Positions 24,184 to 30,808 of a DNA stretch of 64,000 nucleotides are shown one piece after another. The notes below the pieces were generated by a model that searched no databases, was not told the origin of the DNA, and saw nothing but the letters and a program-made list of their open reading frames with translations. A program made the position numbers and the translations under genes. Position 1 is the first letter of the stretch, and each line of letters opens with the position of its first letter. The stretch lies in the NCBI RefSeq assembly GCF_053078305.1, contig NZ_CP166879.1; one strand, given 5' to 3'.

Positions 24184-24807
24184 ATGAACAAGAACTTACT
24201 AACAAGGGTAATTATCATTTCGGATGATCTATATTACCTTCAGGGATTAAGTGCAAAACTTGGTCACCATTATCGTTTTTTTATTGAGTGTTTTTTTTGT
24301 TCTCAAAATGCTTGTAATAATGACCTAAGTACACTTAGATTTGATAACCGCTTTACCAAAAACGTACTTCTTGTCGCAGTGGATGATGTAAGTATACTTG
24401 CAAAACTGCCAGATTTAGCCAGGTTTTTAATGATTGTTTCACTAAGAAAGATGAAAAACAGAAATATCTTCTTTTCACTTTCAGAGCAAACATTCATTAG
24501 CCGATATATAAAATTGAATAAACTCATTACGTTGATTAAAAGTAATGATAAAGACCAGCAAGTCAGGCAGGTGACTCTGACAAGGTATGAGTGGGATATC
24601 TATTACCTATATTTTAAGATAGATAACAAAAGAATATTACACACCCTGCTAAAAAAGGATGTCAAGTACATTAGTCACTATAAAATATCAGTTTTCAACA
24701 AGTTTGAAATTGCTTGCGATAGTGATGGCTTTTACATTTTCAAGGCACTTATACAGTTAAGGAGATTTACCGGTTTTAAAAACGTCAGATTGTATCAATT
24801 GCATTAA
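24184..24807 (+). CDS. Putative fimbrial operon regulator, LuxR/FimZ-like (207 aa), low-confidence family assignment
   Basis: AT-rich ORF directly upstream of the fimbrial subunit gene; N-terminus resembles an atypical receiver (RVIIISDD..., LLVAVDD), C-terminus weakly resembles a LuxR-type HTH. Confidence 0.4.
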   Translation: MNKNLLTRVIIISDDLYYLQGLSAKLGHHYRFFIECFFCSQNACNNDLSTLRFDNRFTKNVLLVAVDDVSILAKLPDLARFLMIVSLRKMKNRNIFFSLSEQTFISRYIKLNKLITLIKSNDKDQQVRQVTLTRYEWDIYYLYFKIDNKRILHTLLKKDVKYISHYKISVFNKFEIACDSDGFYIFKALIQLRRFTGFKNVRLYQLH

Positions 24808-24849
24808 TTATCTCGTTCTATATTAACTCTAAATTTCAAGGATATTAAT

Positions 24850-25410
24850 ATGTTTTCTACTTTCAAAAAAGCAGCTCTGCTGGCAGCTATCGCATTACCT
24901 TTTTCTACCATGGCTGCACCGACAGTCACTTTTCAGGGTGAAGTAACCGATCAGACCTGTTCCGTTAATATCAACGGTCAAACCAATTCAGTAGTATTGC
25001 TGCCGACCGTAGCCATGGCTGACTTCGGTGCAACTTTAGCTGATGGCCAGAGCGCAGGCCAGACGCCGTTTACAGTTTCTGTGTCTAACTGCCAGGCTCC
25101 GACTGGTGCAGATCAGGCAATCAACACCACTTTCCTGGGCTACGACGTTGACGCTAGCACGGGTGTTATGGGAAACCGTGATACCAGCAGCGATGCGGCG
25201 AAAGGCTTTGGCATTCAGTTAATGGATTCCAGCACTTCTGGTAACCCAGTAACTCTGGCTGGCGCGACTAACGTACCGGGTTTGACCCTGAAAGTTGGCG
25301 ATACTGAAGCCAGCTACGACTTCGGTGCGCGTTACTTCGTTATCGATAGCGCAGCTGCCACTGCCGGTAAAATTACCGCTGTCGCAGAATACACCCTGAG
25401 CTACCTCTAA
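24850..25410 (+). CDS. Fimbrial major subunit, FimA-like (186 aa)
   Basis: Signal peptide, conserved Cys pair (TDQTCSVN ... VSNCQA), C-terminal beta-strand motif ending in aromatic/Leu residues, typical of chaperone-usher pilins. Confidence 0.75.
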   Translation: MFSTFKKAALLAAIALPFSTMAAPTVTFQGEVTDQTCSVNINGQTNSVVLLPTVAMADFGATLADGQSAGQTPFTVSVSNCQAPTGADQAINTTFLGYDVDASTGVMGNRDTSSDAAKGFGIQLMDSSTSGNPVTLAGATNVPGLTLKVGDTEASYDFGARYFVIDSAAATAGKITAVAEYTLSYL

Positions 25411-25474
25411 TTAATCTACTGGCTGGCAGTAAATGCCAGCCAGTATTTCTTCGCACAATTAATAGTGATTTTTC

Positions 25475-28772: not shown

Positions 28773-28787
28773 TATAGAGAAAACCCG

Positions 28788-30122
28788 ATGTCTAAATCGA
28801 CTTTTTTACACATTCTGATTAGCTCCATCATATTGGTGGCACTAATACAATCATCCGCCTGGGCCACTTGTTCTAATACACGCGTCGGACAAACGGAGGA
28901 CGGAAGATCGGCACTCATTGAGTTCGGAAAAATTAACCTGACCGACACCTATTTTGCGCCAGTAGGCTCACTACTCGCGACAACGGTCGTACCTTCCACT
29001 AACTACACATCAGGTGGCGCGTCAGGAAGCTCCGTACTGTGGGAATGTGACGCAACAGATTTGCCAAACATCTATTTTCTGGTCGCAACCAATGGCGACG
29101 ACCGCGTGGGTGGCTTTCACAATGCAGGCGGGCCTGATGGTCTGAGTGATGTCTATGCCACCTGGTTTGCTTTTGTCGGTCTCAAGCAGACTATGGCGGG
29201 CGTGACGATTGGTCGTTACTGGAAAAAAGTGCCCATCACCAGTTATGCCACTCAGGGAACTAAAATCCAGATCCGCTTACAGGATATCCCTCCTCTTCAT
29301 GCTGAGCTTTACCGTATTAGTACGCTGCCTGATACCGCTGGCGCAACCAGTTACTGCGGTAATACCAATACTGATGGCGACGGTGTGGGGTATGCGAAAC
29401 CCTCCGGCACACCTTATAACTGCACTCAGCCTAATGCCTATATTCAGCTTTCCGGTACCAGTGGTATTCCATTTGCTCATGATGAAGTGGGCGAGGACAG
29501 TGCGGATCACTATGATTTTTGGGGTGCTGATAATGGTTTTGGTTACGGAATGCGTTCGGCCAATCGACTCTACAACAATGCCACCTGCGTTGCCCGCAGC
29601 GCCACGCCGTTAGTATTGCTGCCGACAATTGCAGAAGCACAACTGAATGCGGGCATGGAAAGTACCGGTAATTTTAATGTCCGCGTCGAGTGTAGTAACT
29701 CAGTTCAATCAGGGATTAGTGATACTCAGACAGCATTAGGAATCCAGGTATCTGAAGGTGCATATACAGCAGCGCAAAAACTGGGGATTATCAATAGCAA
29801 CGGCGGAGTCAGCGCCTTAGTCTCAGATAATTATGACGCGGCAGAGATGGCAAAAGGCGTTGGGATCTACATCTCAAACAGTGCTTACCCCGATACGGCG
29901 ATGACGCTGGTTGGTCAACCGGGCATCGCGAAGTTAACCCCCGGAGGAAATGCAGCGGGGTGGTATCCTGTATTTGAAGGGGCAACATTAGAAGGTGCGA
30001 CTCACCCCGGATACTCCAGCTATAGTTACTCTTTTATCGCCCGGTTGAAGAAACTGCCAAATCAGACAGTCAGTGCGGGAAAAGTGCGGGCAACGGCGTA
30101 TATATTGGTGAAAATGCAATGA
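28788..30122 (+). CDS. Putative fimbrial tip adhesin, two-domain (444 aa)
   Basis: Signal peptide, large Cys-containing N-terminal domain plus C-terminal pilin-like domain; position after the usher gene. Confidence 0.5.
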   Translation: MSKSTFLHILISSIILVALIQSSAWATCSNTRVGQTEDGRSALIEFGKINLTDTYFAPVGSLLATTVVPSTNYTSGGASGSSVLWECDATDLPNIYFLVATNGDDRVGGFHNAGGPDGLSDVYATWFAFVGLKQTMAGVTIGRYWKKVPITSYATQGTKIQIRLQDIPPLHAELYRISTLPDTAGATSYCGNTNTDGDGVGYAKPSGTPYNCTQPNAYIQLSGTSGIPFAHDEVGEDSADHYDFWGADNGFGYGMRSANRLYNNATCVARSATPLVLLPTIAEAQLNAGMESTGNFNVRVECSNSVQSGISDTQTALGIQVSEGAYTAAQKLGIINSNGGVSALVSDNYDAAEMAKGVGIYISNSAYPDTAMTLVGQPGIAKLTPGGNAAGWYPVFEGATLEGATHPGYSSYSYSFIARLKKLPNQTVSAGKVRATAYILVKMQ

Positions 30123-30808
30123 AATCCGTTTTGCTGCTCTTAACCGTCTTGTTCGTACAGTCAGTGGAAGCCGGCATCATGCCGGCTTCTTCACGGATTA
30201 TTTATCGCGATGGCGATCGGGAAAAGACGCTGATGTTGGTCAATACCAATGACTACCCGGTACTGGTGCAAAGTTGGGTAGATAATGGTGAAGGCTCCCC
30301 AGAAGCTGCTTCTCCTCCCTTTGTGGTGCTGCCACCGGTTTTCCGCCTGGTAGCGAAACGAACCCAGGGATTACGGATTATCTATAATCATGACCCACTT
30401 CCCCAGGATCGCGAATCTGCATTCTGGTTAAATCTTTATGAAATGCCGCCAGAAACTCCCCATCAAGATCCCACACATTTAACGCTGGCAATGAATACGC
30501 AACTTAAAATCTTTTACAGGCCAAAATCTGTAACTATGACGCCCCAAGAAGCTATGCGTAAAATAAGTTGGCATCTGGGTAACGACGGCAGCAGTAGCTA
30601 TATTGAGCTTAATAACCCAACACCACTGAATATCTCTTTCACCTCCATCAGCATTGGGGCTACAAAGGTGCAGCAAGAAAGCGATATGATGATAAAACCC
30701 TTCAGTCAACGACGGTACTGGTTAGCAAGTAATAACGTTAGTGGTGTGGTTGCGGCGACATATCTCGATGATAATGGTGCACAGATAAAACAACAATTAG
30801 CGCAATAA
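30119..30808 (+). CDS. Second periplasmic fimbrial chaperone, PapD-like (229 aa)
   Basis: PapD-family motifs (RIIYRDGDREKTLMLVN, FWLNL, LKIFYRP); start overlaps the adhesin gene stop. Confidence 0.75.
   Translation: MKSVLLLLTVLFVQSVEAGIMPASSRIIYRDGDREKTLMLVNTNDYPVLVQSWVDNGEGSPEAASPPFVVLPPVFRLVAKRTQGLRIIYNHDPLPQDRESAFWLNLYEMPPETPHQDPTHLTLAMNTQLKIFYRPKSVTMTPQEAMRKISWHLGNDGSSSYIELNNPTPLNISFTSISIGATKVQQESDMMIKPFSQRRYWLASNNVSGVVAATYLDDNGAQIKQQLAQ

Follow-up and report, generated by a model that had tools for sequence, protein, structure and literature searches.

The 64,000-nucleotide stretch of contig NZ_CP166879.1 (RefSeq assembly GCF_053078305.1) analyzed here, hereafter called the window, carries six co-directional open reading frames (ORFs) on the + strand at positions 24184-30808. 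The first gene, ORF207 (24184-24807, 207 amino acids, ortholog of ECs1281), encodes a putative transcription factor of the cluster. It is followed by the genes for a major fimbrial subunit (24850-25410, 186 amino acids, ortholog of ECs1280), a PapD-type periplasmic chaperone (chaperone 1, 25496-26197, 233 amino acids, ortholog of ECs1279), an usher (26250-28772, 840 amino acids), a two-domain tip adhesin (28788-30122, 444 amino acids, ortholog of ECs1277), and a further PapD-type chaperone (chaperone 2, 30119-30808, 229 amino acids, ortholog of ECs1276). The chaperone 1 ORF could begin at 25475, which would give 240 amino acids; the RefSeq orthologs use the equivalent of the ATG at 25496. As far as their sequences tell, the six genes are intact and make up a complete chaperone-usher fimbrial cluster whose first gene is regulator-like.

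The ORFs and their NCBIfam and Pfam matches agreed on a six-gene cluster with two chaperones, an usher, a pilin, and a two-domain adhesin, as an earlier sequence-only reading of the window had proposed. The Pfam/BLAST classification suggested there placed ORFs 2-6 with fimbrial, chaperone, and usher models. In the major subunit, a signal peptide, a Cys pair, and the N-terminal donor strand TVTFQGEV can be recognized; the protein matched NCBIfam fimbrial subunit models (FimF with an E-value of 6.6e-14, LpfA, and others); it shares 99.5% amino acid identity with its counterpart in strain EDL933. With PF00419 recorded on its ortholog, it combines the pilin fold and the donor strand of a classical chaperone-usher system. 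Both chaperones matched full-length NCBIfam chaperone models (E-values of 2.8e-50 for chaperone 1 and 6.7e-45 for chaperone 2), and PapD_N and PapD_C are recorded on the ortholog of chaperone 1. They are 30% identical to each other, and each retains the Arg (TRIIF/SRIIY) and the Lys ((V/L)KIFYRP) of the subunit-binding cleft that characterize PapD-like chaperones. The usher matched NF011784 with 703 bits, residues 31-839 aligning with profile positions 24-851 of 853, and is 99.4% identical to the EDL933 usher at the amino acid level. The domains of an outer-membrane usher (PapC_N, Usher, and PapC_C) are recorded on an 89%-identical ortholog.

The sequence-only reading had pointed to inactivating lesions that might escape the eye. 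None was visible in any of the six ORFs, each of which ends in a single stop and matches its EDL933 and TB06051 orthologs in length. Compared with a divergent lineage whose synonymous sites are nearly saturated, the ratio of nonsynonymous to synonymous substitution rates (dN/dS) was 0.035-0.12 for the five structural genes, which indicates that these genes are under purifying selection.

The cluster segment is 96.9% identical at the nucleotide level to O157:H7 EDL933, Sakai-lineage strains, and O55:H7 (megablast), and the gene order and gene lengths of the cluster are identical in EDL933. Five of the six window proteins share 98.3-99.5% amino acid identity with EDL933, and the adhesin 93.5%. 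The neighbors are common to both genomes as well: acyl carrier protein (ACP)/ketosynthase genes, a ShlB-type transporter, and a filamentous-hemagglutinin-like protein (otpAB) on one side, and a short-chain dehydrogenase/reductase (SDR) gene, a winged-helix gene, a 163-amino-acid gene, an EAL gene, dgcT, and pgaABCD on the other. In K-12 MG1655, positions 3804-35530 of the window (31,727 bp) are replaced by IS3D beside dgcT; K-12 dgcT ends at window position 35531, and the K-12 sequence resumes at 3803. The suggestion that the cluster is missing from K-12 at this site was thus borne out. A ymdE pseudogene lies at the edge of the IS3D replacement. The K-12 arrangement is more readily seen as an IS3-associated deletion than as the ancestral state.

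The published size of island OI-47 (z1528-z1556) equals 31,727 bp. From this size, the nucleotide identity of 96.9%, and the shared neighbors, the cluster is, at the level of sequence and synteny, the chaperone-usher fimbrial locus of O157:H7 OI-47 that is already catalogued as loc6 or Type 3-like. The novelty implied by the sequence-only reading therefore does not hold. In Sakai, fimbrial locus 6 (ECs1276-1281) comprises six genes including the first ORF and is absent from K-12 and from enterohemorrhagic Escherichia coli O26, O111, and O103. Elsewhere, loc6 (ECs1276-1280) is placed in S-loop 71/OI-47 beside the OtpAB two-partner secretion system (ECs1282-1283). The Type 3-like assignment comes from a published Table S2, and loc6 was catalogued in O157:H7 between 2006 and 2013. 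The label of the gamma4 clade in the scheme of Nuccio and Baumler is applied here provisionally.

Megablast located a single match per genome in 401 of the 5426 complete E. coli genomes, and 374-376 of these matches span at least 80% of the segment. Carriers include porcine enterotoxigenic E. coli and avian, otter, baboon, frog, and freshwater isolates, a distribution wider than the O157/O55/O145 given by reviews. The window does not come from an O157 strain; its best match is a Galapagos freshwater isolate (99.3-99.4%). O145:H28 has a truncated cluster, and in O157 strain AC-3 the cluster is interrupted by IS1203. One copy resides on a plasmid. The same island occurs in the divergent Escherichia-like lineage (L002-L006), which is represented by metagenome and read-archive assemblies only, one of them from a Hadza gut sample. 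Synonymous sites are saturated in this lineage; the structural proteins share 72-90% identity with those of the window, compared to only 55% for ORF207, and the intergenic region can hardly be aligned at all. Evolution is much faster in the regulatory part than in the structural part.

It could be argued that the cluster is a cryptic, silenced relic, intact but never assembled into fimbriae in nature. The upstream region and the first gene are AT-rich, as is typical of H-NS-silenced loci, deletion of loc6 gave no phenotype on spinach roots, and the locus is damaged in O145:H28 and in one O157 strain. We consider this improbable, as all five structural genes have kept the low dN/dS given above across a lineage with saturated synonymous sites, the cluster is full-length in 374 of the 401 carrier genomes, the same architecture is kept in distant genera, and induction of the loc6 transcript has been published.

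The only fresh point on this locus is its unannotated first gene, which we read as a hidden LuxR-type regulator. ORF207 is labeled hypothetical in RefSeq, and searches of Pfam, NCBIfam, and PDB sequences gave no match. It is a coding sequence, with proportions of nonsynonymous and synonymous differences of 0.26 and 0.81 (pN and pS, respectively) relative to L002 and a dN/dS of 0.11 between L002 and L006. An exhaustive profile search revealed only ~10 relatives of 195-223 amino acids, all unannotated and from Enterobacter and its allies, and the family was found only in Enterobacteriaceae. The weak matches obtained (RcsA, FimZ, a NarL-type regulator, GerE, the RcsB DNA-binding domain, and YqeH) were all colinear with the C-terminus. 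The direct single-sequence match between YqeH and ORF207 (E-value of 0.015) is suggestive and not proof, and Pfam GerE remained below threshold on the family, with a best E-value of 0.03 in two of 11 members. A 680-amino-acid eukaryote-like repeat protein (P0136) that was also matched by the ORF207 profile was discarded as spurious.

The family alignment (A3) was then compared by hhalign to an alignment of ten K-12 LuxR-type proteins. The whole of ORF207 aligned over 182 columns covering both domains, with a program probability of 97% and an E-value of 2.8e-11; the N-terminal half alone gave 1.2e-5 and the C-terminal half alone 1.1e-6. The control alignments, one reversed and eight with shuffled columns, gave E-values of 0.27-0.83. 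On this remote homology, ORF207 is a predicted atypical NarL/LuxR-type regulator, consisting of a receiver-like domain and a C-terminal LuxR/GerE helix-turn-helix (HTH). In the receiver-like domain, D14/D15, D67/D68, and S86 fall at the acidic-pocket, acceptor, and Thr/Ser positions, respectively. The position of the conserved Lys is taken by an Arg that is invariant in the family (R107), and one member has Glu-Asn at the position of the acceptor Asp. ORF207 hence lacks the full residue set of a response-regulator receiver (acidic pocket, acceptor Asp, Thr/Ser, and Lys), and its domain is receiver-like and probably independent of phosphorylation. Of the label "regulator" given to this gene from the sequence alone, the assignment itself was supported by the profile-profile homology to NarL/LuxR-type proteins and by the 5' position at adhesin loci; agreement with a curated model was not obtained.

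In E. coli-type loci, ORF207 always stands 5' of the same operon, co-directional and 42 bp from the pilin gene. Its relatives lie directly 5' of chaperone-usher operons (L009/L010 and L016), of a YadA-type trimeric autotransporter (L017/L018), and of a MisL/AIDA-type autotransporter on a P4-like element (L026). Usually they follow a gene for an EAL protein of ~255 amino acids and stand beside a divergent pair of a MarT/YqeI-like gene and a small YqeJ/FidL-like gene. In the window, the EAL, MarT/YqeI-like, and YqeJ-like genes stand on the other side of the operon from ORF207. The K-12 trio YqeH, YqeI, and YqeJ mirrors ORF207 together with GrvA and GrvB. Tentatively, and with rather less than even confidence, we propose that the ORF207 family represents undescribed atypical NarL/LuxR-like proteins of ~200 amino acids that act as a portable adhesin switch, and that GrvAB, ORF207, and cyclic di-GMP (c-di-GMP) turnover belong to one ancestral control cassette for surface adhesins.

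ORF207 presumably controls the cluster. It is also conceivable, though unlikely, that it is an independently acquired AT-rich gene which controls other targets, for example otpAB or distant genes as GrvA does, or which has lost DNA binding. Its G+C content of 0.32 sets it apart from the structural genes (~0.50), and it diverges far faster than they do (55% versus 72-90% amino acid identity). Further, it passes no curated HTH model, one relative (L007/L008) has no adjacent adhesin gene, and the homologous five-gene operons of other genera lack ORF207. Set against these points are the co-directional placement in every E. coli-type locus at a distance of 42 bp from the pilin gene, the relatives directly 5' of adhesin genes of three kinds (chaperone-usher, trimeric autotransporter, and autotransporter), and a LuxR HTH homology that is significant relative to the controls. 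Read as a regulator of this operon, ORF207 would offer a concrete handle for switching on the cryptic fimbria.

The 444-amino-acid adhesin consists of a signal peptide (residues 1-26), a receptor-binding domain of ~236 amino acids (~27-262), and a pilin domain (263-444), the latter being the only part with a Pfam Fimbrial domain. It matched the NCBIfam StbD model with an E-value of 5e-33, and a PDB sequence search with the adhesin returned no relative. An AlphaFold2 (AF2) model based on a 51-sequence alignment had a predicted local distance difference test score (pLDDT) of 91 and a predicted template modeling score of 0.81. Over its full length, this model came closest to the two-domain tip adhesins LpfD and CupB6 in a Foldseek search, in which many pilins ranked next with matches to the C-terminal domain; the kinship with fimbrial tip proteins, on which the sequence-only reading of this gene depended, is thereby supported. 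We give hardly any credence to the idea that the protein is an assembly or structural component instead. StbD, the curated model nearest to it, bears the name "fimbrial usher protein", and the receptor of the tip adhesin is only putative; the protein, however, ends in a pilin domain and has no usher domains, structural matches of its AF2 model include two-domain tip adhesins and receptor-binding domains, and a separate, complete usher is present in the cluster.

The N-terminal domain of this adhesin had been described as Cys-rich, a description that does not fit: the whole protein contains six Cys residues (28, 87, 190, 212, 267, and 302), of which four lie in the N-terminal domain. All six are invariant or nearly so across the family, a pattern that fits two predicted disulfides in the N-terminal domain and the canonical one in the pilin domain. 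The adhesin family gave 313 matches, with Enterobacterales, Pseudomonas, Acinetobacter, Aeromonas, and Dyella at 52-70% full-length identity. Across genera, the N-terminal domain is more conserved than the pilin domain (66% versus 59%, and higher in 43 of 50 homologs), which argues for a broadly shared type of ligand. The distinct receptor specificity proposed from the sequence alone is no more than a conjecture. Within E. coli, 28 of the 29 amino acid differences between the adhesins of the window and EDL933 fall in residues 27-242 (window positions 28866-29513). In this part, synonymous divergence reaches 0.32 and dN/dS is 0.18; elsewhere in the operon, synonymous divergence is 0.02-0.10. 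These values bear the signature of a recombined receptor-binding-domain allele and not of positive selection on point mutations. At least two such recombinant alleles appear to exist in E. coli, and any specificity for a host or a surface should be sought there.

The order of pilin, chaperone, usher, adhesin of ~430-450 amino acids, and second chaperone is shared by the window and by Pseudomonas citronellolis, Acinetobacter ihumii, and Klebsiella pneumoniae. This is the CupA-type five-gene order, an assignment made on gene order. The P. citronellolis operon (L020) adjoins a GerE response regulator, a hybrid kinase, and a REC-EAL protein, and the K. pneumoniae operon (L022) adjoins a 203-amino-acid GerE protein. 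The start of chaperone 2 overlaps the stop of the adhesin gene (ATGA), and the overlap is kept in L002, L020, L021, and L022; in the three genera examined the two genes overlap or abut. On the strength of this conserved coupling, chaperone 2 is most likely dedicated to the large adhesin.

The CupB4/CupB5 pair of P. aeruginosa offers an analogy for a different role, in which chaperone 2 would handle another substrate such as the adjoining OtpA. The two-partner secretion pair divergently adjoins the cluster, and the authors who described OtpAB are cited as proposing that its function is linked to that of loc6. Nevertheless, the adhesin/chaperone 2 overlap and the gene order are kept at Pseudomonas, Acinetobacter, and Klebsiella loci lacking neighboring two-partner secretion genes, and OtpB is a dedicated ShlB-type transporter. 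A role of chaperone 2 in OtpA secretion therefore seems very improbable, and we retain the adhesin as its most likely client.

A GC-rich, terminator-like hairpin with a 12-bp stem (25417-25445, + strand) lies directly 3' of the major-subunit gene. It folds with -24.8 kcal/mol (z-score of -5.1), and none of 200 shuffled sequences folded as well. Equivalent hairpins that differ in sequence occur 3' of the pilin gene in the related operons of Pseudomonas, Acinetobacter, Klebsiella, and the divergent Escherichia lineage. A hairpin after the pilin gene is a classical device for keeping pilin mRNA in excess, and the one found here looks like an intercistronic attenuator or mRNA stabilizer giving an excess of pilin over the assembly proteins. 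A second, weak terminator-like hairpin (30887-30922, + strand; GUGGAGA...UCUCCAC followed by the U-tract UCCAUUUUCC) is located in the convergent gap before the SDR gene. Its region folds with a z-score of -2.7, and a consensus terminator scan missed the hairpin; the transcription unit probably ends here.

Between ORF207 and the divergent otpA lies a non-coding region of 1,390 bp with 33% GC (22794-24183), presumed to be a shared regulatory region and a candidate H-NS target. No annotated feature was found within it in 380 E. coli genomes. It is 90.6% identical to that of O157 and 48% identical overall to that of L002, where it is unalignable except near otpA and in a block at 23925-23975 (72%). 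A promoter-like site (23935-23964) lies inside this block, the only one conserved with the divergent lineage. A perfect 17-nucleotide inverted repeat (CGAATATCTGAAATGAT / ATCATTTCAGATATTCG) with a 19-nucleotide spacer at 23054-23106 may be a protein-binding site. An Rfam search for riboswitches and small RNAs in the 1.4-kb leader returned nothing except a chance microRNA match on the palindrome.

Three further candidates in this region were rejected. An invertible switch similar to fimS was considered for a pair of imperfect 20-nucleotide inverted repeats 548 nucleotides apart; the region is one colinear piece in each of the 380 E. coli genomes, and there is no recombinase gene next to it. A decayed EAL gene 5' of ORF207 was sought by tblastn with the EAL proteins of four relatives against 22794-24183, and the best match had an E-value of 0.044 over 22 amino acids. 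A 62-amino-acid ORF (23919-24107) is conserved only over its first ~50 nucleotides in the divergent lineage and was treated as non-coding.

On the far side of the regulatory region, the two-partner secretion pair (17273-22793, - strand) encodes an OtpB-like ShlB-type transporter and a 1270-amino-acid OtpA-like hemagglutinin-type protein; it is divergent from the cluster and shares with it the 1.4-kb AT-rich control region. Upstream of this pair lies a set of acyl-carrier-protein, ketosynthase, FabZ, SDR, and aminomethyltransferase genes whose product is unassigned. On the other side of the operon, and context rather than part of it, are the winged-helix gene grvA of the ToxR/MarT/YqeI-like type (32424-33236, + strand; 32% identity to YqeI, E-value of 8e-39), a grvB/YqeJ-like gene (33241-33732, + strand; 163 amino acids, E-value of 3e-17 with YqeJ), and a gene for a 536-amino-acid EAL phosphodiesterase (33834-35444, - strand), which we take to be VmpA. 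GrvA corresponds to z1531 of OI-47 and has been described as a ToxR/MarT-like regulator of the locus of enterocyte effacement and acid resistance. Between 32424 and 36900 the order is grvA, the YqeJ-like gene, the EAL gene, and the diguanylate cyclase gene dgcT, and pgaABCD comes next. Regulatory genes of the c-di-GMP and ToxR-like kinds are thus clustered between two adhesin systems and the poly-N-acetylglucosamine (PGA) biofilm operon. Farther away, an 80-bp segment between ycdU and serX (2263-2342) occurs once in the window and three to four times with a period of ~181 bp in K-12 (L023, 13041-13585), a small tandem-repeat polymorphism.

The proposed assembly steps follow the well-studied chaperone-usher pathway. 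The Sec system would export the 186-amino-acid pilin and the 444-amino-acid adhesin, the PapD-type chaperones would capture the subunits in the periplasm by donor-strand complementation and deliver them to the 840-amino-acid usher, and the usher would polymerize a pilin rod with one two-domain adhesin at its tip. The hairpin 3' of the pilin gene would keep pilin mRNA in excess, and chaperone 2, translationally coupled to the adhesin gene through the ATGA overlap, would most likely serve the large adhesin. ORF207 would act on the 1.4-kb AT-rich and probably H-NS-silenced upstream region. As the gap between ORF207 and the pilin gene is only 42 bp, transcription from a promoter 5' of ORF207 may read through the whole unit, and we infer that the six genes could form a single transcription unit. 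The position of the cluster among VmpA, DgcT, and GrvAB and beside pgaABCD makes surface attachment or biofilm formation under c-di-GMP control its most likely role.

We hold with high confidence that the cluster is loc6 of OI-47, a putative member of the gamma4 clade with a gene order of the CupA/Stb type, and that it is probably assembled and regulated as proposed above. Several points weigh against this. The only published mutant test, deletion of loc6, left spinach-root binding unchanged, and the fimbriae, the receptor, and the phenotype of loc6 are only putative. Promoter-like sites in the upstream region were no more common than in shuffled sequence, and the pairing of chaperone 2 with the adhesin is pure inference. 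The call on ORF207, a protein that matches no curated model, draws on profile-profile homology and synteny, and its AF2 model from a four-sequence alignment was poor (pLDDT of 39).

Compared with known systems, the cluster offers little that is new as a fimbrial operon, and its distribution, the reading of ORF207, and the adhesin alleles are modest additions. The one lead worth recording is that the ORF207 family may be a portable module for adhesin control, with links to EAL phosphodiesterases and to MarT/GrvA-like regulators. Among curated models, those of Salmonella Stb (stbABCDE) come closest, with StbD for the adhesin; the usher model carries an adjacent number, and its assignment to StbC is deduced from this numbering. 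The gene content is also alike, with a pilin, a chaperone, an usher, a large adhesin-like protein, and a second chaperone, and StbC has been classed as gamma4. The matches, however, fall below the equivalog cutoffs (703 against 996 bits for the usher, 114 against 363 bits for the adhesin, and 119 against 550 bits for the StbB model). Because these curated cutoffs are not reached, the cluster is, by profile comparison, a homolog and not an ortholog of Stb. Stb is not known to have a first gene similar to ORF207.

The CupA system of P. aeruginosa (cupA1-A5 and PA2133) has the same order of subunit, chaperone, usher, adhesin, and chaperone, and full-length adhesin homologs with 53-58% identity occur in the same arrangement in Pseudomonas species. 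PA2133 is presumably an EAL protein, which would parallel the link to c-di-GMP here; the regulators differ. The cluster is not an operon of the Klebsiella type 3 (Mrk) kind (mrkABCDF and mrkHIJ). In place of the MrkF-type minor subunit, the window has an extra chaperone, so that the Mrk gene set is not reproduced; its adhesin is larger (444 amino acids) and 13% identical to the receptor-binding domain of MrkD, a likeness at the level of the fold only, and a PilZ regulator is absent. Relative to O157 loc6, the window differs in the receptor-binding-domain allele of the adhesin (the 28 substitutions in residues 27-242) and in the intergenic region. ORF207, finally, stands closest to NarL/FixJ regulators (UvrY, RcsA, BglJ, YjjQ, FimZ, and YqeH). 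Unlike them, it fails the Pfam GerE and Response_reg models and has no partner kinase encoded nearby; its family nevertheless aligns with them over both domains, with acidic residues, the Ser/Thr position, and the HTH core in register, and several of these regulators control adhesins or capsule.

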